Position numbers and translations under genes: made by a program. Positions 7,631-29,334 of a stretch of DNA of 64,000 nucleotides are shown here, piece by piece. Position 1 is the stretch's first letter. Each line of letters begins with the position of its first letter. The notes beneath the pieces are model-generated. The model had not been told where the DNA came from, did not search any database, and was given only the letters and a program-made list of their open reading frames with translations. Source of the stretch: Promethearchaeia archaeon (GTDB lineage Archaea > Asgardarchaeota > Lokiarchaeia > Sigyniarchaeales > SOKP01); NCBI GenBank assembly GCA_029856145.1, contig JAHQWK010000012.1, forward strand, positions 64,001 to 128,000, read 5' to 3'.

Positions 7631-8674
7631 TTATTCTCTGGTATTTATTAAGGTTTCAGCTAAATTAAAGAAAATTTCTTCAACATTTTTACCAGTCAAA
7701 GCAGAGATTTCTATATATTTTAAATTAAGTTGTTTTGCTAATATTACCGGTTCTTCAGGATTAATTTTTCTCTTATTAACTAAATCTTCCTTATTACCTA
7801 TAATAAAACCAATTATTTCATCTTCAATAGGGATAATATTTTTTATAACATCTTTATACCAATTTGAAATACTTTCATATGATTTCGGATTTGTTAAATC
7901 AAAGATTAAAATTACTGCTTCTGCTCCTTTATAAAAATGTCGTCGCATTGCTTCGAATTTTATTTGCCCGGCAATATCCCAAATAATCAATTTAATTAAG
8001 ATATTCTTAATTTTAATGTTTTTCTCAGATAGATTCACTCCTAGTGTAGGAATATATGTTCTTGTAAATGCATCATCCGTAAATCTTAAAATTGTAGAAG
8101 TTTTACCGACTCCAGGATCCCCAAGCACAATTATTTTAAAATTATAAGCAAATTGTCTCTTCTCTTCAACCTCTTCTTCAGGAAAAGCCTCTAATTCAGA
8201 GATCGACCTTTCTTTTTTCTGTAAGTCGTTCAGTATTTCTAAAATGGTAAGATATAGATTATTTATCTCATAAAAAATATTATCTGATTTTGCTTGTTTA
8301 TATTTTAACTCTAAAATTTTTTGCGTACTATCGGAAAAGGCGTTTTCAAGATAATCTATATATTTATAAAATATAAGATCATCGGCTTCATTAAATAAAA
8401 CGGTAATAGTTGATAATGATCTTCCTCCCTTGGATGTGGCATCTTCTCTTTCTACATACTTTACAATTCCTTTTAAATTGAATGAAGGAAAAGGTAAAAT
8501 TACTAATGACTTAGGTATAATACCTTGATCGGTTGTTAGCATTGTAATAGATTTAATAGCAACTGACATACGAAGCTTTTCTGACAAATCAATAGGATTC
8601 CAAAGTATGGGATTAGGTCCGGATCCTTCATTGAGTTCAGTGTAAACTATGGCTTTAATTATCTCTTCTGACAT
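7631..8674 (-). CDS. uDENN/longin-like domain fused to Rab-like small GTPase
   Basis: N-terminal ELNEGSGPNP; G1 GDPGVGKT, G2 PTLG, G3 WDIAGQ, G4 NKED, G5 EISA. Confidence 0.85.
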   Translation of the reverse strand: MSEEIIKAIVYTELNEGSGPNPILWNPIDLSEKLRMSVAIKSITMLTTDQGIIPKSLVILPFPSFNLKGIVKYVEREDATSKGGRSLSTITVLFNEADDLIFYKYIDYLENAFSDSTQKILELKYKQAKSDNIFYEINNLYLTILEILNDLQKKERSISELEAFPEEEVEEKRQFAYNFKIIVLGDPGVGKTSTILRFTDDAFTRTYIPTLGVNLSEKNIKIKNILIKLIIWDIAGQIKFEAMRRHFYKGAEAVILIFDLTNPKSYESISNWYKDVIKNIIPIEDEIIGFIIGNKEDLVNKRKINPEEPVILAKQLNLKYIEISALTGKNVEEIFFNLAETLINTRE

Positions 8675-8787
8675 TATTAGGTAAAAAATAGGACTGTATA
8701 TATTCTTCTGTTTTAGACCAAAACTCTTTATAAAATAGAGGAACTTTAAGTTATTAAAAATTTGTAAATCTAATGGCTTTTCTTTCT

Positions 8788-8830
8788 TACTATTGCAAGA
8801 TCGTGAAACTCAACTTTCACGAAGATAGTA
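8788..8830. promoter_or_regulatory. Intergenic inverted repeat between the two Rab-like genes
   Basis: TCGTGAAA(8801-8808)/TTTCACGA(8815-8822), flanked by TACTAT/ATAGTA. Confidence 0.4.
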
Positions 8831-8838
8831 TGATATAA

Positions 8839-9882
8839 TTATAAACGTGATTTAAGCAACAAGTCAGCAATTGTAGAAAAAGCATTATCCACGTTCTCTC
8901 CTAATAGTGCTGAAGTTTCAAAAAATCCCAACTCCAATTGATCTGCTAATTTTTTTAACATTTTAGATGTTATTTTCCGCCCCTCTGTTAGATCTCTTTT
9001 ATTTCCAATAATAAAACCTACTAACTCTTCAGAACGATTTTTTAGCTGTTCGACAACGTCTGAAAACCATTTTGGAATATTGTTAAAAGATTCAACTCTA
9101 GTTAAATCAAAAACTAAAAAAACAGCGTCAGAACCTCGATAAAATTGCTGTCTCATTGTTTGAAATTTTTGCTGTCCTCCAATATCCCAGAGAGTTAATT
9201 GTACAACAGAATCTTCAATTTTAAAGATCTTGTCCGATACCATAACACCTAAAGTGGGTACATAATTTCTTCTGAATGCATTGTCAGTATATCTTAAGAT
9301 TAATGATGTTTTGCCAACATTCGGCTCTCCAACCAAAATTACTTTAAACTGGTAATCAATTAAACTTCTATCTTTAATCTTTTGTTCAGGAAATGCTTCA
9401 CCTTCTTGTTGTGTAATCTCTTGTTGTTTCAGTTCTTCTAAAAGGGTTGAAATATTAAACTCAAGATGTTCTATCACTTCCATATATTCTTTTCTAGAAG
9501 CTTTTGATTTTTCTAGATTTATTATTGCTTGAGTGAGATTATTAAACGGAATCGAAAGATCATTAATATATTTATAGAAAATCACATCATCATTTTCTTG
9601 AAATAATAAAACGATAGCAGATTGACCAATTCCTCCCCGTCTTGATTCATCATCCCATTTTATAAATTTGATTAATCCTTTTAAATTCATTGAAGTAAAT
9701 GGAAGAATTACTAATGATTCTGGAATGAGCCCTTTCTCTCCAGTTAAAACAGTTAAGGCTTTTATGCTAAGATGCATAAGTTCCATTTGAGTTAATTTAG
9801 AAGGAAGCCATGCTACTGGATTTGGTCCGAGTTCATCATTCATTTCAATGTAAGCAATTCCCTTTATTATCTGTTGCGGCAT
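8839..9882 (-). CDS. uDENN/longin-like domain fused to Rab-like small GTPase (tandem paralog)
   Basis: EMNDELGPNP; GEPNVGKT, PTLG, WDIGGQ, NKRD, ETSA; same 347 aa length as its neighbour. Confidence 0.85.
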   Translation of the reverse strand: MPQQIIKGIAYIEMNDELGPNPVAWLPSKLTQMELMHLSIKALTVLTGEKGLIPESLVILPFTSMNLKGLIKFIKWDDESRRGGIGQSAIVLLFQENDDVIFYKYINDLSIPFNNLTQAIINLEKSKASRKEYMEVIEHLEFNISTLLEELKQQEITQQEGEAFPEQKIKDRSLIDYQFKVILVGEPNVGKTSLILRYTDNAFRRNYVPTLGVMVSDKIFKIEDSVVQLTLWDIGGQQKFQTMRQQFYRGSDAVFLVFDLTRVESFNNIPKWFSDVVEQLKNRSEELVGFIIGNKRDLTEGRKITSKMLKKLADQLELGFFETSALLGENVDNAFSTIADLLLKSRL

Positions 9883-10004
9883 AATTACAAGAAATTTTCT
9901 TTGATGAATTAATATTATGTTTATAATCTGTAAATATTTCGCTTTTAACTAATAATATGATTTTTATATATAAAAAATAATCGCTGAAAAAAAAAGAATT
10001 TAGA

Positions 10005-10715
10005 TTATATTTTTAATCCGAAATACATGAGCCAGAAGCTACTTAAATACCCAATTCTAACTATAATTCCTAAAAATCCCGGAGCAGTTAATCCCTCTAA
10101 TAATCCAAATATACAAAACAATATAGAACCCACTGATAGGAACAAAAAATTTTTACGAATAACACCTGTAGATTGAAATCCTTTATATAAAAATCCAAAT
10201 CCGAGGAATACGAGAACCGATAATAAACACGCACCCATTAAAATTCCCGCTAGTGAAGTTAATTTTACATTATAATCAATTAAATTTATAGTCGGTGGAG
10301 TATATGGAGTCGGATTAAAATTAAAAGAAGATAAGGGATAAAGAAATATAATAATTTCGAAGAATATTGTAATAACCAGGAATATAATTGTAATATGTCT
10401 TTTTATTTTCGGTGTCAATGATTGTGCACCTATATACATCGCTGTTACTATTGCAGGAGCAAACCAAATGTATGATAATATCGCGACAATACCATTATTA
10501 GGCATATTTTGTTGAAATATAAAAACAGAGAGAAAATCCAAGAATACACCTAAGAACATAAGGCCAGCAAATAAGGTTGTTAAACCTAAATATGTAAGTA
10601 GCTTTGCATTTATTTTTCTAGATCTATAAATAAAGAATAAACCAAATAATATACCAAAGATCACTACTCCTGAAGCAGTGATACCATCAATCCAACCGGT
10701 AACATCTAAAGGCAA
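10005..10715 (-). CDS. Seven-transmembrane membrane protein, unknown function
   Basis: Seven hydrophobic stretches of ~20 aa with short loops; TTG start. Confidence 0.7.
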   Translation of the reverse strand: MPLDVTGWIDGITASGVVIFGILFGLFFIYRSRKINAKLLTYLGLTTLFAGLMFLGVFLDFLSVFIFQQNMPNNGIVAILSYIWFAPAIVTAMYIGAQSLTPKIKRHITIIFLVITIFFEIIIFLYPLSSFNFNPTPYTPPTINLIDYNVKLTSLAGILMGACLLSVLVFLGFGFLYKGFQSTGVIRKNFLFLSVGSILFCIFGLLEGLTAPGFLGIIVRIGYLSSFWLMYFGLKI

Positions 10716-10877
10716 ATTAAATTTTCACCATATTTTATACTTTTAATCATTGGAAAAAGAAATGATTATCTGTTAATAATATTATCTTCCCGATTAATAA
10801 ATAATATACTATAGTGGAAGGATGCTGATCAAAAGTAAATTTTATAGCAAAGAAATTAAAAAATTGATCAGATTAAA

Positions 10878-11153
10878 TTAATCTTTAACATTTTCTAAGA
10901 TTGAGATAATTCGGTAAATTGTAGTGCGGGCATGAAAAGGAATATTCGGATCTTGTGAGAGATCATCCACCATGTACATTACATTACTGGCAAGAACGCC
11001 CGGAGTTTCATCTTCCTTAAGTAATTCATTTATGCCTCTTTGTGCAACTCTCTTAATATTTCTGGGCACGCTGCGGTCATTTATCATTCCATTTAAAAGG
11101 TATTCAACATTTTCAAAGGCTTGTTTTTCTTCATCAGTTATTGCCCTTGGCAT
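10878..11153 (-). CDS. UPF0147 family protein
   Basis: D.SVPRNIKR, DPNIPFHART. Confidence 0.85.
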   Translation of the reverse strand: MPRAITDEEKQAFENVEYLLNGMINDRSVPRNIKRVAQRGINELLKEDETPGVLASNVMYMVDDLSQDPNIPFHARTTIYRIISILENVKD

Positions 11154-11247
11154 TTAAAAATTCACCAAAAGAAGTGCATATAATAGATAGGAAATTAAAA
11201 AGTAAAATTTTTTTTTAAATATAATTTTTTTGATTTTAAACTAATAT

Positions 11248-14160
11248 TTAATAAATCCCAAATTCACGAATTTGTCTTTTTAGTGTAGGGATATTTTCAT
11301 CAAATTCCTTTATTTTAATTTGATATTGATGAAAAAATTCACTAAATCTCTTTATTTTTCCATGTTCAATTTCTTTGACAAAATCATGAGAGGTTTTTTG
11401 TACACTATTGAAGATTAGATTAAATTGTTCAGTTGAGGAAAAAAGTTTTTGATTTACTTCTTTGCCTTGCTTTCTTACCATATTCCGAAGTTTACCACGA
11501 GGAATTCGAATTTTTTCTAACAATCTATCACATTCACTGAGAAATTTATAAGATTGAGTTTTATTTTCATCATCCAGTTTAGCTTCAATTATTTCAGTTC
11601 TCCATGTGTTTATTCTTCCTCTAGCAAATGTATCAAAGTTCAAAGAAATGGAATCAATCCCTTCTCTTACCAAAAATCTAAGAAATTCGGGGTCATCACT
11701 TGGAGCCTGACCACATATACCCACTTTTCTACCAAATTGATGAGCTGTTTTAATTAAATGACTTACTGATCTCCTTATTGCTTCACTGTTAGTGTTATAA
11801 TTGTAATTATTCATTAAAGGTATCATTTTTTCATTATCTCTTCCGACACCATATGTTAATTGAGTTAAATCATTAGATCCAATTGAAAATCCGTCGAAAT
11901 ATTGGCTAAATATATCAGCACAAATTATATTAGAAGGAATTTCTGCCATTACATACACCTTTAATCCATTTTGACCTCGAATCAGACCTTCACTTTCCAT
12001 GATTTCTATGATCTTTTGGGCTTCCTCTGGACTTCTACAAAATGGTAGCATAGGAATAATATTTGATAATCCCCAATCTCTAGCTTTTTTAATCGCTCTT
12101 AATTCTAAAATAAAAGCTTGTTGAAATTCATCATGAACATAACGAGAACAACCTCTAAAGCCTAACATAGGGTTATTCTCTTCGCTCTCATAAATCCACC
12201 CACCCATAAGATTAGCATATTCATTTGTTTTGAAATCTGAGAGTCGTACAACGCATTCAGCTATATTTCCATCAGATAATATTTTCCACACTCCAGCAGC
12301 AATTGTAGCAATTCCTTCTGCTAATTTCTGCACATAGAATTCTTCTTTATCAGAATAACTGATTGTAAGTTCCCTAATTTTATCTAGGGTTTGTTTTAAC
12401 CTTAAAATTTCCTGACTAAAAGGATCTTTATGATATAGATCACTTTTCTTTATATTTTCAATTTTTTTTCTTTGTTCTAATAGAATATCATACCTCATTA
12501 TTAGGGCTCCAAAATCAATTAATGCATTTGGATGGATCTGAATTTCATCATTTATAATGAATTCAAGTCTAGCCAATCCAGTGCCGTCTGGATGCTTTCC
12601 TGCAGATAATGCTCCTTTAGGAATTCCCAAATTAACCAAAACTTTAGTTTTTGTAGAGGGAAGTTTTGCGAATTCAATTGTATCAAAATCATATTCTACA
12701 TCTTTAAGCCAGATGCGCGGTTCTCCTTCACTACAATCAATTGTTACGTATTCTAATCCATTACGTTGTTGTTCTTTCATTATTTGAACAATATTATCTG
12801 CTCCTACTATAGAAGCAATATTCAACTCCCTTGAGACTATTGCTGCATGACATGTAGGACCTCCTCTCTCTGTAATTACACCTCCTAAATTTTGCATATA
12901 TGAAGTCCAATCAGGATTGGTTTCTTCTGTTATAAGGATATCTCCTTCTCGTAATAGATAAGCATCATTTATAGATTCTATTATTTTAACTTTTCCATAA
13001 CCAATTCTTCGACCAATGGCAATACCAGTGTTCTCAACGAATAATCCTTCTTCCATTAATTTATCTGGATCTTCTAAAAGATAAAATATCTCTTCAACAT
13101 CACCTTTAATACTATGAACAGTTTCAGGACGTGCTTGAACAATATAAATCTTACCATTATTCCCAATGGCCCATTCAATGTCCATTCTTCTACGATAATG
13201 TTCTCTAATTTTTTGAGCATATTCGGCTAAAGTTAAGACCTCATCTTCTGTTAAACAGTATTGCATTTGTTTTTCTTGTGGTACAAGGACTACTTCTGTG
13301 CCTATTTGTTCTCTACTCTTAGAAAAAATCATCATTTTTTCTTTTTTCACAAGCTCATGTCGAATTATTCTAAGTTGCTTTGGATCATGTTTAAAAACAA
13401 TAAACTCATCCCCTTTTTCAATTCCTTGTACGATTAATTCTCCCAAACCCCACGTACCTCTAATAACAAGAACGTTTGGATTGCCTGAATCTGGGTCTTC
13501 CGTGAACATTACACCAGATGCTTTTACACCTCCTCGTCCACCAGCCATTTCTTGGACTCCCACTGAAAGTTTTACGTCAAAATGATCAAACCCAGCTCTT
13601 TCTCGGTACATAGTTGCTCTTGTAGTGAATACAGAAGCCATATCTTTTAGAATATATTCTAAGATTTCTTTATCACCAGAGATATTCAAATGTGTATCTT
13701 GCTGTCCTGCAAATGATGCATCGGGTAGGTCTTCAGCTGTAGCAGAGCTTCTTACAGCAAATGTAGAGTCTTCTCCAATTTTCTCAATCAATTTGCTATA
13801 AGCGTCTAATATCTCATCAGCTAAAGAATCAGGAATTTTTGATTGCTCAATGATATACCTAATATTTGCGCAAAATTTATCAACTTTTTCGACTGCCTTG
13901 ATATCCTCTAACTTTAATTCATTTGATATTCTGTTAATATCTCTTGCAATCAATTCTCGAAGTGAAACTTCTTTTTCTTTAATTGTATAAAAGTTGGTAT
14001 CTAATACATAATCGAAGGCTTCTGAAGTTACAGCAAAACCAAGCGGAACAGAAACTCCAAAACTTAATAATTCTCCTAGAGATGCGTTTTTCCCTCCTAC
14101 GAGAGGAACATCACTTATTCTAACATCTTCAAAGAACTTAATATATCTATAATCTTTCAT
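11248..14160 (-). CDS. ppsA: Phosphoenolpyruvate synthase (pyruvate, water dikinase)
   Basis: VGGKNASLGE, AVRSSATAEDLPDASFAGQQDT, phospho-His GGPTCHAAIVSRE, FSIGSNDLTQL, GICGQAPSD. Confidence 0.93.
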   Translation of the reverse strand: MKDYRYIKFFEDVRISDVPLVGGKNASLGELLSFGVSVPLGFAVTSEAFDYVLDTNFYTIKEKEVSLRELIARDINRISNELKLEDIKAVEKVDKFCANIRYIIEQSKIPDSLADEILDAYSKLIEKIGEDSTFAVRSSATAEDLPDASFAGQQDTHLNISGDKEILEYILKDMASVFTTRATMYRERAGFDHFDVKLSVGVQEMAGGRGGVKASGVMFTEDPDSGNPNVLVIRGTWGLGELIVQGIEKGDEFIVFKHDPKQLRIIRHELVKKEKMMIFSKSREQIGTEVVLVPQEKQMQYCLTEDEVLTLAEYAQKIREHYRRRMDIEWAIGNNGKIYIVQARPETVHSIKGDVEEIFYLLEDPDKLMEEGLFVENTGIAIGRRIGYGKVKIIESINDAYLLREGDILITEETNPDWTSYMQNLGGVITERGGPTCHAAIVSRELNIASIVGADNIVQIMKEQQRNGLEYVTIDCSEGEPRIWLKDVEYDFDTIEFAKLPSTKTKVLVNLGIPKGALSAGKHPDGTGLARLEFIINDEIQIHPNALIDFGALIMRYDILLEQRKKIENIKKSDLYHKDPFSQEILRLKQTLDKIRELTISYSDKEEFYVQKLAEGIATIAAGVWKILSDGNIAECVVRLSDFKTNEYANLMGGWIYESEENNPMLGFRGCSRYVHDEFQQAFILELRAIKKARDWGLSNIIPMLPFCRSPEEAQKIIEIMESEGLIRGQNGLKVYVMAEIPSNIICADIFSQYFDGFSIGSNDLTQLTYGVGRDNEKMIPLMNNYNYNTNSEAIRRSVSHLIKTAHQFGRKVGICGQAPSDDPEFLRFLVREGIDSISLNFDTFARGRINTWRTEIIEAKLDDENKTQSYKFLSECDRLLEKIRIPRGKLRNMVRKQGKEVNQKLFSSTEQFNLIFNSVQKTSHDFVKEIEHGKIKRFSEFFHQYQIKIKEFDENIPTLKRQIREFGIY

Positions 14161-14270
14161 ATTAACGAGAAACCCCTAATCAATGGAATTATGCGAAGTT
14201 CTCTAATAATAATAATTATTCTTCTAATTATAAATTAAACGTTAATAAAAAAAGTAACGTCAAAACTTGA

Positions 14271-14789
14271 TTAATTTAACTCCTTTTCAAAAACCTCAAA
14301 ATCAGAAGTAGTAAATAGGCAAAAGATCACTTTCCTAATTTGAGTTTTTCCTTGTAGGTATTCTTTGGTTATTGTAATCATAATTTTAGCACATCGATCA
14401 ATAGGATATCCAAAAATACCTGTCGAGATGGCTGGAAATGCGATTGTTTTAAGTTGATACTCATCCATTAATTTTAAACTATTAAGTGTTGCATTCTTTA
14501 GTTTAAGATCTTCATCTCCTTCTCCTATTCGTGGTCCTACAGCATGAATTACATGTTTAGCCTTAAGATTTCCTCCGGTTGTTATAACTGCACCTCCAAC
14601 AAAAGTACCACCTATTTTATTACATTCCTGCTGAATTTTTGGACCTCCTTTTTTCTTGATAGCTCCAGCTACGCCTCCCCCTAATATAAGTTGAGCATTA
14701 GCGGCGTTAACGATAACATCAGTATCTAATTCAGTAATGTCACCTTGAACTAAGCTAATTACTGAATTTCCCACTTTTAATTCTTTCAT
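14271..14789 (-). CDS. Macrodomain protein (ADP-ribose/O-acetyl-ADP-ribose hydrolase, MacroD type)
   Basis: GDITE, IVNAAN, GGGVAGAI, VIHAVGP, AFPAISTGIFGYP. Confidence 0.92.
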   Translation of the reverse strand: MKELKVGNSVISLVQGDITELDTDVIVNAANAQLILGGGVAGAIKKKGGPKIQQECNKIGGTFVGGAVITTGGNLKAKHVIHAVGPRIGEGDEDLKLKNATLNSLKLMDEYQLKTIAFPAISTGIFGYPIDRCAKIMITITKEYLQGKTQIRKVIFCLFTTSDFEVFEKELN

Positions 14790-14844
14790 AACTAATGTTA
14801 ATTCTTATTTTTAATAAGATAAGAAATAAAAATAAAATTTGAAT

Positions 14845-15555
14845 TTATTTTTCTTCACTGCCTTTTTTGAAGATTTCATCTAGTTTAGCCCTATCGTCAT
14901 CAGACATTTTACTCATAGCTTCCATGTTTTGTCGCATTAAATCTATCATAATTTTTTGTGAAATCATTTGATTCAAGACAGGTAAGGCAATTCTCATTCG
15001 AGTTAATTCATAATGCATAGTCTTTGCAGTATCTCGCATCTCTTTTAATTCTTCGGTGGTCATTTCTTCTTCACCAATACCTGGACAATCAGCATCAACA
15101 ACAATAAAGTTTTTACCATCAAACTCAAGTGGATATGTACGACAACTTAATGGACGATTATCATAAATCAAACACTTTTTATCATCTTTATTATATAAAG
15201 GGCATTTAACATTAAGCAACTCTTCTATGGGTACAGTAGCAAATGGATCTTTCATATCCTTTTTTTCTTCACCTTCTTTTTGAGGAGGTGGTAAGGGTTT
15301 TAAGATTAAATCAATCCCAGTGTCAGGCTTGTTGTATATATCTAAGTATGGCATAAAATTAGCTAAAACACCATTTTTTGCCCACATCTCTAAATCCCAA
15401 AATGTAATAGGAATTGGACCACGGGAAAGACAGCAAGAATCACATTTGGTGCATTTAAAAGTAAATTTTGCTTTAGGTTTTTCTTTTTCACCATCTTCCT
15501 GTTTTTCAGCTTCTTTTACTTCTGAAGCCTGAGTTTCTTTTTCTTCATCTACCAT
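14845..15555 (-). CDS. YkgJ/CxxCxxCC cysteine cluster protein
   Basis: FKCTKCDSCC, CPLY, CLIYDNRPLSCRTYP, CPGIG. Confidence 0.85.
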   Translation of the reverse strand: MVDEEKETQASEVKEAEKQEDGEKEKPKAKFTFKCTKCDSCCLSRGPIPITFWDLEMWAKNGVLANFMPYLDIYNKPDTGIDLILKPLPPPQKEGEEKKDMKDPFATVPIEELLNVKCPLYNKDDKKCLIYDNRPLSCRTYPLEFDGKNFIVVDADCPGIGEEEMTTEELKEMRDTAKTMHYELTRMRIALPVLNQMISQKIMIDLMRQNMEAMSKMSDDDRAKLDEIFKKGSEEK

Positions 15556-15674
15556 TTAAAATCTCACTTAATATATGTTTATAAAGATATAATATTATAA
15601 AATCAGTTTGAGAAAGAAGAATTCAATCTAACAAAAAAATTTTATTTTTATTCTTAATAAATATATTTGAAACT

Positions 15675-17733: not shown

Positions 17734-18636
17734 ATGTTAAATATTGAAACTGAGCAAAAAGAAATCCAAATAGCTAATGTTAAATTTGGTGGTCCGCCAG
17801 GTAAAAATCCAATTGTTATGATAGCCACTGTTTTTTATACAAAACATGCCGCTTTGTTGGATGAAAAAACAGGTAAATTTGATAAATCTATTCTCGAAAA
17901 GGAATTAAATGATTTTACAGAAATTATTGAAGAAACACAATTACAAGGAGTAATTGATGTTGTTGGGGCATATCCAGATGCGCTTATAAAAGAATGTGAA
18001 TTTGTTGCTGATAATGTGGAATATCCTTTTTTAGTTGATGGGTTGAACGATTCATCTAGAATTCCTGCAATGAAAGGATTAGATGAAATGGGGTTATCAG
18101 ATCGAGCTATATTAAATAGTATCGATGAAAATACAACTGATGATAACTTAGAGAAACTGAAAGAAATTGGTGTAAAAAATGCTGTGTTACTAACATTTGG
18201 AAATAAATATCTTTTTCCACATCAGAAGTTAAAATTCTTAAAAGAAACCTTAATTCCTAAAGTTCAAAAAGCAAACATTGACAAATATATTGTTGATACA
18301 GCTGTATTAGACTTACCTTCAATTTCCATTAATTTTGAATCAACAAGATTAATTAAAAAAGAATTAGGATTACCAACCGGATTCGCTCCTGCTAATGCGA
18401 TATATGGATGGAGTTTTATTAAAAATTTTGGTGAAGTTGCTCGATGTGGAGCAATTGCTTCCATAATGACTTATTGTGCAACGGCTCCTAGTGATTTTAT
18501 TTTGTTTGGACCAATAAAATTTGCCAAATGCGTTATACCTGCAATTTCTTTAATTTCAGGGGTAAATTCTTACTATCAAAAAAGAGTTAAAAGACAAAAA
18601 GTATCTGATAGAAGTCCATTAAACATCATTTTTTAA
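17734..18636 (+). CDS. Stand-alone MtrH-family methyl-corrinoid:pterin methyltransferase
   Basis: GGPPGKNPIVMIATVFY.KH, DEKTGKFDK, ILNSI, DTAVLD, GLPTG.APAN, DFILFGPI. Confidence 0.85.
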   Translation: MLNIETEQKEIQIANVKFGGPPGKNPIVMIATVFYTKHAALLDEKTGKFDKSILEKELNDFTEIIEETQLQGVIDVVGAYPDALIKECEFVADNVEYPFLVDGLNDSSRIPAMKGLDEMGLSDRAILNSIDENTTDDNLEKLKEIGVKNAVLLTFGNKYLFPHQKLKFLKETLIPKVQKANIDKYIVDTAVLDLPSISINFESTRLIKKELGLPTGFAPANAIYGWSFIKNFGEVARCGAIASIMTYCATAPSDFILFGPIKFAKCVIPAISLISGVNSYYQKRVKRQKVSDRSPLNIIF

Positions 18637-20135
18637 GCAATATACCTTAATAATAAATCTTGAGTGTATTTTAAGAATCCTTTCAATTCTGTTTTTATCT
18701 TTTCTTTTTTATTTTCATCATCTACTAAAAATAAAAAGAACATAATATTATCTTCAATTTTAATTCTTTGAAAAATAATTACAGAATTAGCAACTTTAAA
18801 TACTGCCTCATCTTGCTTTAATGCTTTAAATTTTGCAAAGATTTTAAATAATACAGCAAATTGAGGTGCTGAAACTTCAAAAACATTAATTACTTCTGAT
18901 TTTGGAATTTTAGTTAATTCCATTGCCTGGTTACTGTAATAATCAGCAAGAACTAATCCATCAACACTTAGTAATTGTGTCAAATAAGTATCTGTCATTA
19001 ATGAAAAATTTTTTAGATTATGATTTATCAAATCTCTATTAGGACTTAACTTTGAGATTCCTGAAGAGAATGCGCGCAATATAGTAAAGATTTGAAATAT
19101 TGTTGTTATGTAGATTTCAATTAGTTCAAATTGGCTAATTTCCTTTAATTTACTTTCGATAAATTCAATATTATCTTTAATTTCTTCTGAATCTAAGATA
19201 TCTGAGTCTCCTTTTGATAATATATAGATAATTGGTGTAGTTTGATTAAATTCTTTTATAACATCTTTTAAATTTTGGAGGTATTCAATACTTTCATCGA
19301 ATCTAGATTTATTTTTAATATCTATAAAGTAAAACATTAAATCTGCTTCATATAAATAAATTTCCGCTTTATCAATGTATTTCTCTCGAAATCTTTTTTG
19401 TCCACCCAGATCCCATAGAAATATTGTTGCCCCTAAAGCCTCAATAGATTTAATACTTGCCCCTACTGTGGGTTTAAGTCCAATTAATTTACTATATTTG
19501 CGATCTACAGAAAGTAGAAAGCTAGTTTTCCCACTATCGTCTAATCCCGCCATTAAAATCTTCATCTTCCTATGAGTTGTAATAGGGGTAGAAGGACTCT
19601 GTTCAATTTCAATTATTTTTGATAAAAGGTCTTGAAATTTACTTTGAATATCTTCACGTGGGGGATATGAATTACTTATTTCTTCGTCAAAATTCGTGAA
19701 AAACTCAAAAACTACTGGTTTGATTCGATTTATGTTGTTATATAAAAAGCTACGCCTATTTTCTTCTACTAATATTGAAAATGCTGTAGGTACCGCAGCA
19801 CTTTCAGAATTTATTCTTATAAAATGAAAATATGTAAGTGAAGTTGTTTTAAAATCAGGATAAGGTAATATCGCAAAATATTGAATTTTTCGAAGATCTT
19901 TTTCTTCAGTAATTATTTTATCACTGATAAACAGACTTAAGTTTTTTATCGAAATTTGAGTTATATCCCTATACGATAAAATAAGATCATCTTGGTTCCT
20001 TTGCTCAATAGTAAGTTCCTTTAATTCTTTCTCGGTAATATAATTAGGGAAAGAGTAAATCGGGGAAGGTCCTAACTCACCATATACGCTAAAGATAAAT
20101 CCTTTGACAATTGAAGTTCTAAGTAATTCTTCCAT
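18633..20135 (-). CDS. uDENN/longin + Rag/Arf-like GTPase + roadblock-like domain fusion
   Basis: SVYGELGPSP; GLDDSGKT, PTVG, WDLGGQ, SKGD; C-terminal LLSVDGLVLA roadblock-like strand. Confidence 0.8.
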   Translation of the reverse strand: MEELLRTSIVKGFIFSVYGELGPSPIYSFPNYITEKELKELTIEQRNQDDLILSYRDITQISIKNLSLFISDKIITEEKDLRKIQYFAILPYPDFKTTSLTYFHFIRINSESAAVPTAFSILVEENRRSFLYNNINRIKPVVFEFFTNFDEEISNSYPPREDIQSKFQDLLSKIIEIEQSPSTPITTHRKMKILMAGLDDSGKTSFLLSVDRKYSKLIGLKPTVGASIKSIEALGATIFLWDLGGQKRFREKYIDKAEIYLYEADLMFYFIDIKNKSRFDESIEYLQNLKDVIKEFNQTTPIIYILSKGDSDILDSEEIKDNIEFIESKLKEISQFELIEIYITTIFQIFTILRAFSSGISKLSPNRDLINHNLKNFSLMTDTYLTQLLSVDGLVLADYYSNQAMELTKIPKSEVINVFEVSAPQFAVLFKIFAKFKALKQDEAVFKVANSVIIFQRIKIEDNIMFFLFLVDDENKKEKIKTELKGFLKYTQDLLLRYIA

Positions 20136-21192: not shown

Positions 21193-21277
21193 ATATTTTT
21201 AGTATAATCTAATCCTAATTCTCCAAGATAAGTGTGCTTATAATAATAAAAAAATAAAATAAAAGAGTAAGATTACT

Positions 21278-21838
21278 ATGAATTTTGATTTTAAAAATAA
21301 ATTTAATGGTGTTGTTTCAGTAATTGGAGCAAGTGATATTAATAAAGATATTAAAGATAAAACTATCGAAATTGGAAGATTGATTGCAAAAAATAATTAT
21401 GTTATAGTATGTGGGGGGCTATCAGGTGTAATGGAAGCAGTATGTAAAGGTGCGAAGGAAGAAGGAGGTTTTACTGTAGGTATAATCCCCTCGGCAGAGA
21501 AATCAATAGCAAATAAATATATAGATTTAGTCATTCCATGTCCCTTTTCACAAGCTAGAAATATAGTTGTCGTTCTAACAGGTGATGTATGTTTAGCTAT
21601 AAGTGGTAAAGCTGGTACTTTATCAGAGATTTCATTTGCTTGGATATATCTAAAACCAATTGTCGCATTGACAGATGTAGAGGGTTGGTCTTCAAAAATT
21701 GCCAATCAAAAATTAGATGATAGAAGGGCTGATATGATTTATGGAGTGAAATCACCTCAAGAGGCAATCGAAAAAATAAATGAATTATTTAAAAAAGATA
21801 AATTGAAGGGAGATTTAAGTTTTACCAATAATTTTTAA
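21278..21838 (+). CDS. LOG/TIGR00725 family nucleotide phosphoribohydrolase-like protein
   Basis: CGGLSGVMEAVCKGA, ARN, GKAGTLSEI. Confidence 0.88.
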   Translation: MNFDFKNKFNGVVSVIGASDINKDIKDKTIEIGRLIAKNNYVIVCGGLSGVMEAVCKGAKEEGGFTVGIIPSAEKSIANKYIDLVIPCPFSQARNIVVVLTGDVCLAISGKAGTLSEISFAWIYLKPIVALTDVEGWSSKIANQKLDDRRADMIYGVKSPQEAIEKINELFKKDKLKGDLSFTNNF

Positions 21839-22590
21839 ATTTTTTGCAATCTTAAAAAGAAATATTCTTCCTCTAATTCTTGCTCAATTATCTTAAATCT
21901 TACAGTTTTTGCTAATTCAATAAAATAATTAATATCTTGTTCTTTATTCCAACGTGTTCCATAACCTGTTATTATTTTTTTATTTTTCATTTGAATTTTC
22001 ATTGGAATTACATAAATTTCTTTCTTTTCATTTGTTTTTTTTGGAAGTTTTAAATCCCATAATACCAATTCCCCTTCTTCTCTTAATACTCTATAAATTT
22101 CCTTAAATACTTTTTTATGATCACTTTTAGGTATATACATTATTGAAAAAAAAGCTGTAACCATATCAAAAGTGTTATCCAGAAATTTTAAATCTTTAGC
22201 ATCCATTATGATTTTAAGGCTTTCAATATCACCTGCCTCAAGAGCTTCTTCAAGTTCACTTTTTCTGAAATCTATTGAAACAACATTGTCTCCTTTCAAT
22301 TGACCTATTATACCTTCTCCTCCACCACCTATATCTAGAATTCTCCCATTTAAGTTTATGTTATTTAAATTAATCTCTTGAGGATTGGTAAAAAAGATTT
22401 TGATCCCCTCTTTTTTTCCTACAAATTCCTCAATATTTTCCTTAGGAGCATACCACTCTTCTTCAATTTTTTTTCCTTTCAGTTTTCCAGTTTCTAAATG
22501 ATTTCTAATAGTATCTTCAGTTTCTCCGCTTATGAACATTTCTGCAATTTCTAAAATATCGTAATATCTGACGTTATTTATTTCTCTCAT
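21835..22590 (-). CDS. HTH (excisionase-like) + class I SAM-dependent methyltransferase
   Basis: N-terminal EIAEM..TIRNHLETGKLKGKKI..W; ILDIGGGGEG, MDAKDLKF.DNTFD. Confidence 0.8.
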   Translation of the reverse strand: MREINNVRYYDILEIAEMFISGETEDTIRNHLETGKLKGKKIEEEWYAPKENIEEFVGKKEGIKIFFTNPQEINLNNINLNGRILDIGGGGEGIIGQLKGDNVVSIDFRKSELEEALEAGDIESLKIIMDAKDLKFLDNTFDMVTAFFSIMYIPKSDHKKVFKEIYRVLREEGELVLWDLKLPKKTNEKKEIYVIPMKIQMKNKKIITGYGTRWNKEQDINYFIELAKTVRFKIIEQELEEEYFFLRLQKI

Positions 22591-22752
22591 ATTTACCTTT
22601 AAAATAGAGCATTTATTTATTTTTTTTTATTTATTTACAATCTAAAATATAATGCAAAATCTAAATAAAGGATGTTATAATTTTTAATTTACAAAAAGAA
22701 TATATTTATATACCAATTACTTTTATAACTTTAAAGTAGGTGAAATTTAACT

Positions 22753-23718
22753 TTGGAAAAGAATCTTAAACAATCAATCTTGTATCTAAAGAAGGAGGAA
22801 CCCACAAAACCCGAAGTTTCAAAAATAATGTTCACAGGCCTCGATGATGCAGGCAAAACAAGTATAATTTTATCACTTCAAAGAGAATTTTCCAAGATTG
22901 CCATTTTATCTCCAACAAGAGGGGCTCAGAGAAGGATATTCGACTTTTTGGGTAAAGAAATTTCGGAATGGGATTTAGGTGGACAATTAGCTTATCGAAT
23001 AGCCTATTTAAAAAACCCTGGTAAATATTTTGAAGGAACAGAAATTGCAATCTATGTAATTGATATTCAAAATAAACCGAGAATCGCTGAAGCTATAAGC
23101 TATTTTAAAGATGTAATAGAACAATTTAAAAAATTGGAAATTGAACCACCAATATATGTATTTCTTCATAAATATGATCCTGCTCTAAGAAGGAGTGCTC
23201 AAAACGAAATGGAAGCCGTAGTAATAGATTTAAAAGACAAACTAAGAGCTACTAAATATAAAGAAATTTATTATTATGAAACATCTATTTATGATTTTGG
23301 CTCAATTATGACCGCTATGTCTGAAGTTCTATTAAGTTTATATCCAAAATCAGAATTAATAGAAAAAACCATTGTTGAATTCGCTAAAAAAGTAGATTCA
23401 GAAGGAGTTGTCGTGATTGATGATAATTCCCTTATAATCGGTTCATATTATAAAGATGATGAAACAAGACACCTCCTAACGGCTTCAACTCCCTATTTTC
23501 TTACATTGCACGATTCATTTCAATACACCGGAGTGGAAGAGAGACATGAGAATCGGATGATTGTCCAGCGTTTTGGGAAAAACTTTATATTTAAACAAAT
23601 CGTATTAAAAAAGGAATCATCACCATATTATCTACTACTTCTTAAAGAAGACCCCGTTTTTCATAAAGAAGATCTTGAATCTTTTGCGAATCTATTAAAG
23701 GAGATTCTCTATAAATAA
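22753..23718 (+). CDS. Rag/Gtr-like GTPase with C-terminal roadblock domain
   Basis: GLDDAGKT, PTRG, WDLGGQ, Rag-type G4 HKYD and G5 ETSIYD; C-terminal VVIDDNSLIIG. Confidence 0.82.
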   Translation: MEKNLKQSILYLKKEEPTKPEVSKIMFTGLDDAGKTSIILSLQREFSKIAILSPTRGAQRRIFDFLGKEISEWDLGGQLAYRIAYLKNPGKYFEGTEIAIYVIDIQNKPRIAEAISYFKDVIEQFKKLEIEPPIYVFLHKYDPALRRSAQNEMEAVVIDLKDKLRATKYKEIYYYETSIYDFGSIMTAMSEVLLSLYPKSELIEKTIVEFAKKVDSEGVVVIDDNSLIIGSYYKDDETRHLLTASTPYFLTLHDSFQYTGVEERHENRMIVQRFGKNFIFKQIVLKKESSPYYLLLLKEDPVFHKEDLESFANLLKEILYK

Positions 23719-23911
23719 GAGAATTGATTGTGTTTTAATTCCGTTTGAATACGTTGTATCTTAGTTTTCCTATTACTAACATTAATAAAACTAGATTTTT
23801 ACTTATATTTTATAGAATAAAATCAAAAAAAATATAATTTCACTTTGTATATAATAAAATAAAATTGAATGAAAAGATTGACCAAGATACTCGCATAGTG
23901 GAGAAAATATA

Positions 23912-24982
23912 TTGATTATATGTCAGAATTGTGGAACTACAAATAATGAAGCAATTACCAATACTTGTAGGACATGTGGAGCATTACTACCCGTCTCTTC
24001 GAAATCCTCAAGATCGAGAAGAATAAAAACAGATAAAAAAAAGAAAGAGAAACAAAAACCTACTGAGCAACCACCAATTGAATCTGGTGAATTGGAAGAT
24101 ATTGGAGAAGAAAAATTGGAGCTACAAGAAATTCCAAAAGAAGAAAAATTGATTGGTGAAGAAGTTGAATTACAAGAGATTCCGAAGCCTTCAATTGAAG
24201 AAGTTGAAAGTAAAACTCCTCCAAAAAAGGAAGAAGTATCTGAAGCAACTAAATCAGAAATTTTGCAAGAAATTCCTGCTCAACCTTATAGAGGGACTAT
24301 TTTAAACTCACAAAGGGGCTTTCAACCACCACCTCGCTCCACGAATGCTATATCGGATGCTTTTATGGAGCTTAAAAATTCTGTTATAGACGGTCAAGAG
24401 AAAAAGCAGTCAGTTCCATTAACACCAATACCCTCAGAAACTACTGAAAGTAATGCAGCTGTTTTAAGACAGAAACAATTAGAAAAAGACATGACTAAAG
24501 TGTTAGGCTTCCTTTCAAAAAAAATTTCAGTAAAGAAATTAGAAATTCCTGAATCTGCAACTACAGGGAAAATAAAACAAAAGGAAGAAATACCTCCTTC
24601 TAGCATGAATGAAATTTTAAAACGATTAATTACATTAGATCTGAACATTGAAGCATCAGCAATTATTAAAACGGATGGGACGATATTGGCTTCAGCAATA
24701 TCAAGTAGAATTTCTGATTCTTTATTTGCAACTATAGGAATGAATCTTTCTATGATGGGTTCAGATATAATTGAAGGATTAGATGCGGGTAAATTGAAGA
24801 CTATTTCCGTCCGTGGCTCAGAAGGAGTTTTAGACCTTGCTCCTATAGATAAAGAAGATCTAAGTGTTAAAGATATGATTTTAATAATACTAAGTCATCC
24901 AAAAACTAAAAGTGGAATAATATCATTTGCAGTTAACATAGTAAAAAAACAAATAAAAGAGTATTTAGGTTTACAAAAGTAA
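23912..24982 (+). CDS. Zinc-ribbon + disordered linker + roadblock/LC7 (MglB-like) domain protein
   Basis: CQNC..CRTC; E/P/K-rich linker; IEASAIIKTDGTILASA roadblock signature. Confidence 0.8.
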   Translation: MIICQNCGTTNNEAITNTCRTCGALLPVSSKSSRSRRIKTDKKKKEKQKPTEQPPIESGELEDIGEEKLELQEIPKEEKLIGEEVELQEIPKPSIEEVESKTPPKKEEVSEATKSEILQEIPAQPYRGTILNSQRGFQPPPRSTNAISDAFMELKNSVIDGQEKKQSVPLTPIPSETTESNAAVLRQKQLEKDMTKVLGFLSKKISVKKLEIPESATTGKIKQKEEIPPSSMNEILKRLITLDLNIEASAIIKTDGTILASAISSRISDSLFATIGMNLSMMGSDIIEGLDAGKLKTISVRGSEGVLDLAPIDKEDLSVKDMILIILSHPKTKSGIISFAVNIVKKQIKEYLGLQK

Positions 24983-25016
24983 AGAGCTTATAAGGAAACA
25001 GATAAAACTGGATTCA

Positions 25017-25808
25017 TTATAACCTTTGTTGTATACTCAATTTATTAATTTTAACAATTTTGAAATAGCATAAATTTTTATGCAATTCTTGTAAAAATGA
25101 ATTCAATTCATAAATAGAAACCAGAGGAATTTGATTGCTATTAATTTTGATGCTATTGTCTTCAACGGTAACCATCATTGGTATTAAAAGAAATGGTAAT
25201 CTTTTTTTTAAGTCTACTTTTGTACCTAATGAATCTTGAATAATTCTTGAGAAAACTTCAGGATTTTTTTTCAGCGCGATAGCCCGCCGATATTGTAGAT
25301 CTGCCGCTTTATTGATCGAACTAAATGAGTCTTTCCGTTTCCACTGTTTTGCATCAATAAGTAACACATATTTTAAATTAATTCCAATAATATCAATTTC
25401 ATATTTTTTTTGAGAAGTTTTAAATTTAAAATTGGATTTATCTGAGAACCTAAAATTCCTAGTAGTTTCATAACCATTTTTTGAAAGAATTTTTTGTACA
25501 AAAATCTCAAAACCACTATAATTTAAAATCTCTGAGATTTGTCTTATATCTAGTTCTAAAATTTTGAAAGCTTCTGTAATAAATAAAATCTTATTTATTA
25601 CAATATAGAATTGATAATTGCCTTTTTTAAGAGAAATAAAATTGAAATTTCCTATAAATTCCTTTAGGTCAGAATCATTAAACTGATTTAAAAAGGGAAT
25701 TTTTGAAAATTCTAACCAAATTTCGATAACATCTGTATTAGTTTCTCTTAATATATGAAAGATTTCAACAAAAAATTGCTTTAATAAATTCTCAGTGAAG
25801 ACTTTCAT
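25017..25808 (-). CDS. PD-(D/E)xK restriction endonuclease-like (Mrr-type) protein
   Basis: FE.FV..IL...GY, YEIDIIG, LIDAKQW. Confidence 0.75.
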   Translation of the reverse strand: MKVFTENLLKQFFVEIFHILRETNTDVIEIWLEFSKIPFLNQFNDSDLKEFIGNFNFISLKKGNYQFYIVINKILFITEAFKILELDIRQISEILNYSGFEIFVQKILSKNGYETTRNFRFSDKSNFKFKTSQKKYEIDIIGINLKYVLLIDAKQWKRKDSFSSINKAADLQYRRAIALKKNPEVFSRIIQDSLGTKVDLKKRLPFLLIPMMVTVEDNSIKINSNQIPLVSIYELNSFLQELHKNLCYFKIVKINKLSIQQRL

Positions 25809-25916
25809 TATTTTTAATAAGGAAATTTAGAAAAATAAAACATGGAGAGTAAGAAAATTTTTAAATTTAATCAGTTAATAATTTTTTTTTTTAAGGTTTA
25901 GAGATATTATTAATCT

Positions 25917-27719
25917 ATGGACTTATTACCAAAAGTATTTAGAACTGAAGGGAATATTGCAGAATTTGATTCATCCAAAATTTTTGAAAGTATTTTAAAA
26001 GAAACAGGAATGAGTGAAAAAGATACTAAATATATAACAGAATTAGTAGTTAGAAGAATAATAAGCTCAGGTATTAAATTTCTTTCTGGACCTCATATAA
26101 GAGAAATTGTTTGTTCAATTCTTTCAGAACAACATTTTGAAAATGAACGTAAATTATATACAAGAATAGGAATGCCATTAATGGATTACGAAGAAATTCT
26201 TGAAAAAGGTCAAAGCGATAAACCACATGAACGTATAAATCCAGAAAAAATACAACATTGGGCTGCAAATCAAATAGCTGAAGAATATGCCCATTTAAGA
26301 ATATTAAAAAATGAGGAATCAAAAGCGCATCTTGCTGGTGATATCCATATTAATGGTTTAAATTATTTTGTTCTAAGACCATTCAGTCAAATATGGGATC
26401 CTCGACTTATTCTAAAACATGGACTTCCCTCAATGAAAAACTTGAAGGGATATTATAAGCATAATCCTGCAAAAAATCTAAATTCTGCCTTGTATCAATT
26501 AACTAAATGGTTGGAAATGATACAAGATGAATTTTATGGGAATCAAAGTTTTAATTTTATCAGTACTTTCTTAGCACCATATTTAGATGATTTATCTGAA
26601 GAAGAAATAATTAAAGAAATTCAGAGTTTTATTTACGAAAACAATCTATTGCCTCTTACAATCGGACGAAAAGCTCCCCAAATATCGATTTTTTCATCAA
26701 TTTCTGTTTTCAAAGAACTATTAGATATTCCAGCAATAGTCCCGGGTGGAAAAATCAAAAATGTGTATGGAAATTATCATAACCAATGTAATCAGTTGTT
26801 TAAAGCTTTATTACTAGTTTTTAAAGAGATATCTCAGAAATATCCCCTTCTTTCATTACCAAAACATTACATATTATTAGATTATAAATTTATGAATTTG
26901 ATTGAAAATATTTACCCTAAATTCTGGGACGAAAATGAGTTGATAAACTCCTCTTATTTTTTGAAATTTCATCCCAATTCCTATAGATTTAAAAATTTAG
27001 AATATTTGGTAAGCGAAAAATATCACAATTATGGTATACTTCAAAATATTAGCTTAAATTTACCCAGATATGCGTTTACCACGAAAGATGAAGATAGATT
27101 TTTGGCATTATTAAGATCAAAGTTAGATTTATGCTCAAATATTTTGTTAAAAAAATATGATATAATAAAGAAAAGAATCCATTCAAACCATTTACCACTT
27201 TGTGGCACTGTTATTAATGGAGAAACGATATTTAAATTAGAAAATCAAGGTTTATCAATTAGTTTAGTAGGGCTAAATGAAGCAATTAGATATTTGACTA
27301 ATTACGATCTCCATGAAAACTTAAAAACAATTGAATTCGGTAAGAAAATCTTAACTGAAATAAATCAATTATGTTCAGAATTATCTGAAGAATATGATAA
27401 AATATTTTTATTAAGTGAAAATCTTTCAGAAAAAGCTATAAATAGATTTACTCAATTAGATTTAAAACAATTTCCAAAGGAAGTAAGATTTGTTTCCAAT
27501 AATAAAAACTATACTAATTCTGTTCATTTCCGTGAAGATGCGGATATAGATTTATTAGATAGAGTGAAAATTCAAGAAGATTTTCATAAACTCATTCATA
27601 AAGGGGCAATTACCTATATCTCCTTAAAAGACTTAAAAAGAAGCGAATTAAAAATTAAAGATTTCTTAACAAAAATTGCTAAGGAATCAAGGATATCAAA
27701 TTTAAAATTTCATGCTTAA
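25917..27719 (+). CDS. ATP-cone NrdD-like (class III RNR) protein lacking catalytic residues
   Basis: ATP cone (KVFRTEG..LSGPHIREIV), AHLAGDIHI, NLPR, VGLNE, YTNSVH; no glycyl radical or zinc C-terminal domain. Confidence 0.8.
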   Translation: MDLLPKVFRTEGNIAEFDSSKIFESILKETGMSEKDTKYITELVVRRIISSGIKFLSGPHIREIVCSILSEQHFENERKLYTRIGMPLMDYEEILEKGQSDKPHERINPEKIQHWAANQIAEEYAHLRILKNEESKAHLAGDIHINGLNYFVLRPFSQIWDPRLILKHGLPSMKNLKGYYKHNPAKNLNSALYQLTKWLEMIQDEFYGNQSFNFISTFLAPYLDDLSEEEIIKEIQSFIYENNLLPLTIGRKAPQISIFSSISVFKELLDIPAIVPGGKIKNVYGNYHNQCNQLFKALLLVFKEISQKYPLLSLPKHYILLDYKFMNLIENIYPKFWDENELINSSYFLKFHPNSYRFKNLEYLVSEKYHNYGILQNISLNLPRYAFTTKDEDRFLALLRSKLDLCSNILLKKYDIIKKRIHSNHLPLCGTVINGETIFKLENQGLSISLVGLNEAIRYLTNYDLHENLKTIEFGKKILTEINQLCSELSEEYDKIFLLSENLSEKAINRFTQLDLKQFPKEVRFVSNNKNYTNSVHFREDADIDLLDRVKIQEDFHKLIHKGAITYISLKDLKRSELKIKDFLTKIAKESRISNLKFHA

Positions 27720-27870
27720 ATAAATTAAATAGTTTAGTAAAAAAAGTATTTAATAAGAATAACTTTTTTGATAATAGTAAAGTAATATTAGGATTTTATA
27801 ATATTTTAAAATTAAAAACCTAATGAACTATAATAAAGTAAGAATTTCCTAAAAAATAAATGGGGATCAT

Positions 27871-29334
27871 TTGACAAAAACTAAAGAAAAGCAAAAGAAA
27901 CAGAAGCCGACAAAACAAGAAGTTCCAGATACCAAATTAAATATTATTAACGCAGTGGTTTTGAGCATATTCGATGAAAATGGACCAACACCGAAAATTT
28001 TTTGGCCTGATGATTTAGATGAACAAGCTGGGCTTTTAATTGCTATGAAAACTATTAGTTTATTAATGGGTGATGCAACATATCAAGATGGAATAGGAAC
28101 AGAAGGAGTTAACTATTTTGGAATACTTCCCTTCCCTGATTTAAAATTAAATGGATTAACTTATTTTTTCTTAATACCTGATGATAATGCTCGGGGTAAA
28201 GCTTTAGCGGCAACAATAACAGTTTTAATTGATGAAAAGAATAAAGTATTCTTCTATGAAAATATGAAGTATTTAAGAGTTATAATGGATAAAGCGGCTA
28301 CTCAAATTCAATTCAATAAAGACCGTGATGAACGAGAAATAATTATAGATGAGTTAAGAGAAGAGCTCGTCGAATTCACCAAAGAATTAAAAGATCCCTT
28401 TTCCACGAAACGACAATTGAAAATATTACTAACTGGATTAGATAAAGCAGGAAAAACGAGTTTTATGCTAGGGATAAACAGGAAATATTCTGAAATTATA
28501 AAATCCATGCCAACTAAAGGTGTTGAAAGGACAGAGGAAAACATATTTGACGAGCAAAATTCCCAAATTTCTTTGTGGGACCTTGGAGGTCAAGAAAAAT
28601 ATAGAGAAAGATATCTCGAACAAAGTGAAGTTTATTTATACAATATTGATTTAATGTTTTTTTTCATTGATATTCAAGACGTAGATAGGATCGAGAAGGC
28701 ACTTAGTTTATTTAGAAAGATTTTAAATATATTGATTGAATTTGATGAATTTCCCCCAATTGTTGTTTGTCTTAATAAATTTGATCCAGATCTTAAAGGT
28801 TCTAAAGAAATTTTTAAGAATTTAGAAGTAATAGCAGATGCGATTAAGGAAAATTCTGAGAGATTTTTTATTAAGATTTTCCAAACAACAATTTTTGATC
28901 ATTGGAGTCTTATTTCAGCATATTCTTTTGGTCTATCTCAATTAAGCCCTAATCGTGAATTATTTAGGAATCAATTGAAAAAATTTGCTAAAAAAACTAA
29001 TTCAGATGCAATATTACTACTTAACGAGAATGGTTTAATATTATCAAATTTTTCTAAAACTGATATCTCTGGAAAGTTATTTGAGATAATTGCCCCGTAC
29101 TACAAAAATCTTTATAAAACATTCGAAGAATTTAAATTACTGGAACAGGATTTTATAGTATCTTCCGGAATCGCTGATGAGTCTAAAAAAGTGATTTTCA
29201 AAAAAATTACTGTTGAAAAGTACAATTTATATCTCCTTCTATTCTTAGAAAAGTCTTTAGAAATTGAGAAAATTGAAAAAAATTTACCTGAGTTTTCAAA
29301 AAATCTCATTGAATTAATTCATACATACATTTAA
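27871..29334 (+). CDS. uDENN/longin + Rag/Arf-like GTPase + roadblock domain fusion
   Basis: SIFDENGPTP..WP; GLDKAGKT, PTKG, WDLGGQ, NKFD; LLLNENGLILS; paralog of 18633-20135. Confidence 0.82.
   Translation: MTKTKEKQKKQKPTKQEVPDTKLNIINAVVLSIFDENGPTPKIFWPDDLDEQAGLLIAMKTISLLMGDATYQDGIGTEGVNYFGILPFPDLKLNGLTYFFLIPDDNARGKALAATITVLIDEKNKVFFYENMKYLRVIMDKAATQIQFNKDRDEREIIIDELREELVEFTKELKDPFSTKRQLKILLTGLDKAGKTSFMLGINRKYSEIIKSMPTKGVERTEENIFDEQNSQISLWDLGGQEKYRERYLEQSEVYLYNIDLMFFFIDIQDVDRIEKALSLFRKILNILIEFDEFPPIVVCLNKFDPDLKGSKEIFKNLEVIADAIKENSERFFIKIFQTTIFDHWSLISAYSFGLSQLSPNRELFRNQLKKFAKKTNSDAILLLNENGLILSNFSKTDISGKLFEIIAPYYKNLYKTFEEFKLLEQDFIVSSGIADESKKVIFKKITVEKYNLYLLLFLEKSLEIEKIEKNLPEFSKNLIELIHTYI

Follow-up and report, generated by a model that had tools for sequence, protein, structure and literature searches.

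Four genes within 22 kb of the analysed window (64,000 nucleotides of contig JAHQWK010000012.1 from a Promethearchaeia archaeon, assembly GCA_029856145.1) encode small GTPases that carry a longin domain directly N-terminal to the G domain. Judged by sequence profile and fold model, the shared domain is a GP-motif longin of the GTPase-activating protein (GAP) type known from NPRL2, folliculin and SMCR8, and the longins of two of the genes, 27871 and 8839, have a conserved, probably exposed arginine at a candidate arginine-finger site. The Rag-type fusion is split into two paralogues: a B-type (27871), in which this arginine is invariant, and an A-type (18633), in which the corresponding loop is unconstrained. 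By analogy with eukaryotic complexes, dimers of these longins may act as arginine-finger GAPs on tethered or partner GTPases, a reading to which we assign a probability of about 0.55. An earlier interpretation of the same DNA (the sequence-only reading) had missed this conserved arginine and the way it divides the paralogues, which together provide the real mechanistic handle.

All four genes are intact open reading frames (ORFs): 7631 (positions 7631-8674, minus strand, 347 amino acids), 8839 (8839-9882, minus strand, 347 amino acids), 18633 (18633-20135, minus strand, 500 amino acids) and 27871 (27871-29334, plus strand, 487 amino acids). As the sequence-only reading had proposed, they share an N-terminal domain, of about 150-180 residues, with homology beyond chance. 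The N-terminal regions of 7631 and 8839 matched each other with an E-value of 8e-43, and that of 27871 matched 18633, 7631 and 8839 with E-values of 1e-13, 2e-12 and 3e-9, respectively (phmmer, Z=4000); 18633 and 7631 were not significantly similar in pairwise comparison and are linked via 27871 and the family profile (E 3.5e-13). The start motif described earlier holds in part: GP (residue 19 in 7631 and 8839, 22 in 18633 and 38 in 27871) and ILP[FY] (residue 59 in 7631 and 8839, 89 in 18633 and 85 in 27871) are present in all four proteins, whereas the spacer preceding GP is only three residues long in both Rab-type proteins (7631 and 8839), and the 8839 motif reads ILPFT rather than ILPFP.

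The C-terminal parts are of the two kinds that had been recognized from the sequence. Those of 7631 (G domain at 7640..8143) and 8839 (8854..9351) are Rab-like (Ras, E 2e-47 and 3e-46; closest PDB match, Rab8), with G1, G3 (DxxGQ) and G4 (NKxD) intact in 7631; unlike in eukaryotic Rab GTPases, no prenylation cysteines were found at the C-terminus of either protein. The two genes are tandem paralogues separated by 164 bp and are sisters in the G-domain tree (Shimodaira-Hasegawa-like approximate likelihood ratio test, 96). In 18633 (18636..19565) and 27871 (28417..29331), a Rag/Arf-like G domain is followed by a C-terminal roadblock domain (Gtr1_RagA, E 2e-18 and 2e-25), and the fold of this combination matches LokiRagO (PDB 8YL2) and RagA/Gtr1; motifs G1-G5 are intact in 27871, and G4 reads SKGD in 18633. 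The Rab-like and the Rag/Arf-like G domains sit in different parts of the GTPase tree of the host genome, implying at least two separate events of longin-GTPase fusion, or else a swap. The longin and G-domain trees bear out the proposal of a single longin family with fusions to two GTPase classes. In the host genome (3.55 Mb), only these four proteins have a longin of this family directly N-terminal to a GTPase, and a broad profile search recovered six further copies in other architectures: a 1123-residue Arf-longin-PAS-GAF-HATPase protein, three folliculin-like proteins, a receiver fusion and a kinase-hairpin fusion. An operon comprising the four genes was considered and rejected, since they lie on mixed strands with housekeeping genes interspersed. 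A sigma-70 promoter scan of the DNA, a kind of scan unsuited to archaea, gave results at chance level.

An AlphaFold2 model was made of the 27871 longin domain (27940..28386), and the other three longins were assigned by homology: 8201..8674 in 7631 (residues ~1-158), 9409..9882 in 8839, and 19593..20120 in 18633, where an insert of about 20 residues follows beta2. The model has the longin topology beta-beta-alpha-beta-beta-beta-alpha-alpha, with a mean predicted local distance difference test score (pLDDT) of 85.7. Its top structural match is the Loki longin 8YQG (Z 18.9, root-mean-square deviation 2.1 A, 141 residues aligned), and ranks 2-8 are occupied by chains of Lst4 (Z 13.2), C9orf72 (12.4), the folliculin complex FLCN/FNIP2 (12.2 and 11.4), NPRL2/Npr2 (NPRL2, 11.0) and SMCR8 (10.2). 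Longins of TRAPP, DENND1A and SNARE proteins rank lower (Z <=9.5; DENND1A, 9.3), and Foldseek agrees with this wide structural search. The family profile matches 8YQG with an E-value of 7e-16. Over the GP hairpin it also aligns position by position with SMCR8 and NPRL2, although these E-values (0.13-0.2) are not significant. Pfam Folliculin was matched by 24 of 94 family members (best E 1e-6, below the curated cut-off in the query), and this match runs gap-free across the arginine loop. The GP motif lies at the beta1-beta2 hairpin in all four proteins and in 112 of 129 family representatives (clustering at 50%); PMC12290439 describes it as a hallmark of GAP longins that TRAPP, adaptin and DENND longins lack, and reports Asgard longins that carry both this motif and an arginine finger. 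The longin fold proposed by the sequence-only reading is thus upheld. Of its assignment to uDENN/longin domains of the NPRL2/folliculin/SMCR8 type, the longin type stands, and the term uDENN is valid only insofar as it means longin: no cDENN or dDENN lobes follow, the G domain comes directly after the longin, and the proteins are therefore longin-GTPase fusions and not DENN proteins.

Only G, P, P, R and G are at least 90% conserved among 94 diverse family members. The last two form an R-G pair that lies in the loop between beta4 and beta5 of the 27871 model, and arginine occupies this site in 106 of the 129 representatives. In the 27871 class (Arg108, codon 28192-28194), R-G is found in 117/117 close and 24/24 diverse sequences. 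The 8839 protein likewise has R-G (Arg82, codon 9637-9639); 7631 has lysine in place of the arginine (Lys82, codon 8429-8431), as do its 23 closest homologues, and 8839 and 7631 may have diverged as B and A did, in a second and more recent split. Within the A-type, R-G is present in none of 41 sequences, the beta4-beta5 loop is one residue shorter, and 18633 itself has glutamate at the finger offset. A-type longins form one clade (support 96/94) in the longin tree, which has few columns; the grouping of A, B and solo longins (93/89) is not firm. The A-type G domain drifts as well, with G4 mostly S/T-K-x-D and the G3 glutamine absent in 9/39, while B-type G domains keep G1-G5 in most rows. From the position in the modelled fold, the gap-free Folliculin match and the Asgard longins of PMC12290439, we infer that the loop arginine marks an arginine-finger site equivalent to FLCN R164, SMCR8 R147 and NPRL2 R78.

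In the eukaryotic complexes, two different longins pair to cup the GTPase, and one of them inserts an arginine (PMC8213707; bioRxiv 2020.04.15.042515; PMC9473554). On the analogy of FLCN-FNIP2, NPRL2-NPRL3 and SMCR8-C9orf72, two of the present longins would dimerise, and their parallel helices would close around switch I/II of a small GTPase that has GTP bound; the arginine of one subunit would then complete the active site and speed GTP hydrolysis. The fusion would tether GAP and switch, so that hydrolysis would depend on assembly of the dimer. The substrate could be the protein's own G domain, that of its partner, or a free GTPase such as the product of gene 22753 (22753..23718, plus strand), a third Rag-like GTPase-roadblock protein that has no longin (48% identical orthologue of WP_147663357 of strain MK-D1, PDB 8YL2, LokiRagO) and is a candidate substrate or alternative partner of the fusions. 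According to the supplement of Tran et al. (PMC10933270), G domains of this kind have no arginine in switch I and may need a GAP.

Two other functions can be envisaged for the domain itself. It might be a DENN/TRAPP/Mon1-like guanine nucleotide exchange factor (GEF) serving its fused GTPase, given that most longin platforms are GEFs (PMC10933270) and that DENND1A is among the structural matches; but the missing cDENN and dDENN lobes, the higher structural rank of the GAP longins, and the GP motif as a GAP-longin mark make this very improbable. The longin might otherwise serve only as a platform for dimerisation or docking, or hold the GTPase in an inhibited pose, with the arginine binding phosphate or a partner in a non-catalytic manner. 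Conservation of the arginine regardless of the fused domain fits such a role, and so does the inactive binding mode of FLCN on Rags (PMC9473554). Nevertheless, the arginine is catalytic in all three eukaryotic GP-longin complexes (PMC8213707), and R-G is among the most conserved sites of the domain and lies in a loop, which suits an active-site role; we regard a purely structural function as fairly unlikely.

For the Rag-type fusions, the likeliest working unit, at slightly less than even odds, is a B:A heterodimer, paired longin to longin and roadblock to roadblock, in which B would give the arginine and A would be the scaffold. Both types were recovered from 30 genomes. In 19 of the 20 cases in which they share a contig, 4.1-13.6 kb separates the two genes, which are divergently oriented and usually flank the longin-less 22753 gene. 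On distant contigs, the linkage persists with other orientations and neighbours, an arginine-less and an arginine-bearing paralogue facing each other, once only 5 bp apart. Nearly every genome of two families retains the A-type, the longin core of which is strongly conserved. The A-type was not found in four genomes of another family, in which a stand-alone arginine-less longin of ~170-180 residues is divergent from B at a distance of ~1.1-1.9 kb, one ORF apart (L032:10366-10905, L033:10350-10859, L034:8477-8986 and L039:1-524). The B protein of this family has an insert after beta2, in the same place as the A-type insert. The A-type was not found in five genomes that are 63-88% complete. B was not among the matches listed in one genome (G005, 90% complete), and only a 329-residue open frame was present in another (G022), anomalies that may be assembly gaps or frameshifts. 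A full-length complex prediction of B with A scored 0.56, whereas none of three controls scored above 0.00, with at least 96% of contacts agreeing between runs and a partner pLDDT of at least 77. The mark used was reached by 58 of 80 solved pairs and 2 of 110 mismatched pairs, but at a score of 0.60 or less it was reached by only seven of the 80 solved pairs and by both mismatches; the prediction lends weak support.

Several observations weigh against the GAP reading or the pairing. The region is a conserved housekeeping neighbourhood and not an operon, which makes the A-B linkage weak evidence when taken alone, and in one genome the two genes are 81.5 kb apart. The complex prediction, set against the three controls, gives no interface, and its pass may reflect likeness to solved Rag or FLCN-FNIP dimers. 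The linker between the B longin and its G domain has only ~10 residues, and the predicted template modelling score of the B monomer is 0.56. Sequence searches of the PDB aligned only the GP hairpin, and not the arginine loop, with FLCN, SMCR8 and NPRL2. Longins joined to kinases, receivers or roadblocks keep the same R-G, so the arginine need not act on a tethered GTPase. The A-type is also not uniform: 4 of 39 sequences, including that of MK-D1, have arginine at the finger offset, followed by lysine or asparagine and not by glycine, and one A-like fragment retains R-G. Finally, the solved relative 8YQG is a homodimer that has no such arginine, and LokiRagO (8YL2) is a homotetramer.

These two structures also favour the strongest competing explanation, in which neither fusion needs the other: each would work as a homodimer paired via its longin, its roadblock or both, A would be drifting or separately specialised, and the linkage would be inherited gene order; the arginine may still be a GAP finger in that case. 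Homodimers of longin-GTPases were obtained with AlphaFold2 by Tran et al. (PMC10933270), the flanking housekeeping genes are equally syntenic, and the complex test can also be passed by close cousins of true partners. Against it stand the retention of A with a conserved longin core, a linkage that outlasts re-orientation, and the stand-alone arginine-less longin that replaces A beside B in another family; homodimers appear a possible but less probable arrangement than the B:A pair. The sequence-only reading had raised the possibility of heterodimers across classes, with Rab-type and Rag-type fusions coupled via their longins in an ancestral, proto-GATOR1/FLCN-like module. The proximity of the four genes and their common longin family speak for it, as does the spacing of ~10-25 kb between Rab-type genes and the Rag-type pair in many of the family's genomes. 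Yet Rab-type and Rag-type longins form separate groups with ~25-30% identity, Rab-type copy number is variable, and the single longin-Rab gene of MK-D1 lies 78-88 kb from the Rag-type genes; no evidence for Rab/Rag coupling was obtained, and we consider it improbable.

The distribution does not support an ancestral module either. When the B longin was searched against 201 Asgard genomes, 50 of 51 matches to close homologues fell in the Loki order, covering every scored genome of two Loki families, and relatives were found in 1 of 151 other Asgard genomes. Source-named homologues belong mostly to Promethearchaeota/Lokiarchaeia, and matches in an ESM Atlas search were all under 0.9. In ten genomes of other Asgard families, the profile matched GP longins, of which some have R-G, and none of these matches lay in a GTPase ORF. 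The longin domain is thus pan-Asgard, and the GTPase fusions look Loki-specific in this sample and inform mechanism more than direct ancestry. The A/B split would be a duplication internal to Loki, paralleling rather than preceding FLCN/FNIP and the other eukaryotic pairs. In its fullest form, the preferred GAP reading would make the 27871:18633 heterodimer a self-inactivating switch whose two chains contain an entire folliculin-Rag core: paired longins with a single catalytic arginine between them, a Rag-like G domain in each chain, and paired roadblocks. Such a switch would have arisen within Lokiarchaeia, parallel to FLCN-FNIP-RagA/C. We hold this version only tentatively and think it rather doubtful; if true, no archaeal arginine-finger longin GAP would have been matched to its GTPase before it.

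Related longins and neighbouring genes showed further features. The 1123-residue protein (L001:6743-10114) consists of an N-terminal domain, an Arf-like GTPase, an R-G longin, two PAS domains, GAF and HATPase, with the longin after the GTPase, and similar long ORFs occur in many genomes of the genus. Another host-genome locus (L099:1825-7715) encodes a GP/R-G longin whose helical tail is kinase-like (227 amino acids); the genes around it encode three Rag/Arf-like GTPases, a response regulator and a fragment of a kinase. In another Asgard family, stand-alone GP longins of 203-273 residues form a tandem pair near genes for P-loop proteins (L087, L090, L094 and L095, in G051 and G062); one of the four has R-G within the matched part, and they are candidates for a free longin heterodimer. 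Upstream of B in the window, an ATP-cone NrdD-like ORF of 600 amino acids (25917-27719) has neither the C-terminal zinc nor the glycyl-radical motifs; it is kept there in the genus and is missing there in the family-2 loci examined. A zinc-ribbon-roadblock gene behind 22753 (23912-24982) and a gene whose product resembles, by eye, a longin with a helix-turn-helix tail and is not matched by the family profile (30788-31423) are both syntenic with B in relatives. An MtrH-like gene (17734-18636) has 4 bp in common with 18633 at the latter's stop, and an MtrH gene also flanks an A or B gene in the distant contigs L080 and L083.

Published work leaves open on which GTPases the GP-motif Asgard longins act (PMC12290439) and describes Asgard GTPases as hard to match to GAPs, being rarely in operons with them (PMC10933270). 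The fusions name candidate GAP-GTPase pairs, as the longin is carried by both Rag-like and Rab-like GTPases, and their orthologues in the cultured Promethearchaeum syntrophicum MK-D1 make this published question testable. At stake is whether the arginine-finger GAP chemistry of longins, on which mTORC1 and C9orf72 control is based, is older than eukaryotes.

The architecture itself is already published, contrary to the earlier suggestion of an undescribed system. Five longin-GTPase fusions were reported in Loki in 2016 (Klinger 2016, as summarised in PMC4917890), and the four genes belong to the Asgard longin-GTPase(-roadblock) fusions, having the longin N-terminal to a small GTPase and, in the Rag-type, orthology to listed MK-D1 proteins. 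WP_147663355.1 (B; 41% identical to 27871) and WP_147663364.1 (A; 36% identical to 18633) have the same architecture, lie 10 kb apart around WP_147663357.1, the orthologue of the middle gene, and are labelled longin-GTPase-roadblock by Tran et al. (2024, PMC10933270), whose accessible text models longin-GTPase homodimers and contains no longin typing, arginine finger or heterodimer model. The Asgard longins of PMC12290439 share the GP hairpin and finger arginine seen here, and the two-component fusions of NPRL2-like Asgard longins described by Liu et al. (10.1101/2020.10.19.343400) have a counterpart in the 1123-residue protein of the host genome, in which the same longin family is likewise fused; the parts of these two sources that were available do not describe GTPase-fused members, whereas here the longin is fused to Rab-like and Rag-like GTPases. 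The combination of arginine-finger type with GTPase fusion and the A/B pair were not found in print, nor was a paper on LokiRagO/LokiRagM or a relevant one on 8YQG, in a search that covered sources other than subscription journals. The Loki roadblock-longin dimer 8YQG is of the same family by sequence and closest in fold, but has neither GTPase nor R-G. RagA/B-RagC/D (Gtr1-Gtr2) and LokiRagO share with 18633 and 27871 the G domain followed by roadblock and a TSI/TTI-type G5, from which the latter differ by the additional N-terminal longin and an Arf-like G1/G3. The GAP heterodimers FLCN-FNIP2 (Lst7-Lst4), NPRL2-NPRL3 and SMCR8-C9orf72, which act on RagA/C or Arf1, share the fold (Z 10-13) and GP motif at 7-13% identity and, like the proposed B/A pair, combine one subunit with the arginine and one without. 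In eukaryotes, the longin protein (folliculin, NPRL2 or SMCR8) turns off a switch carried on a separate protein, whereas in the four archaeal proteins there are no DENN lobes and the GTPase is part of the same chain.

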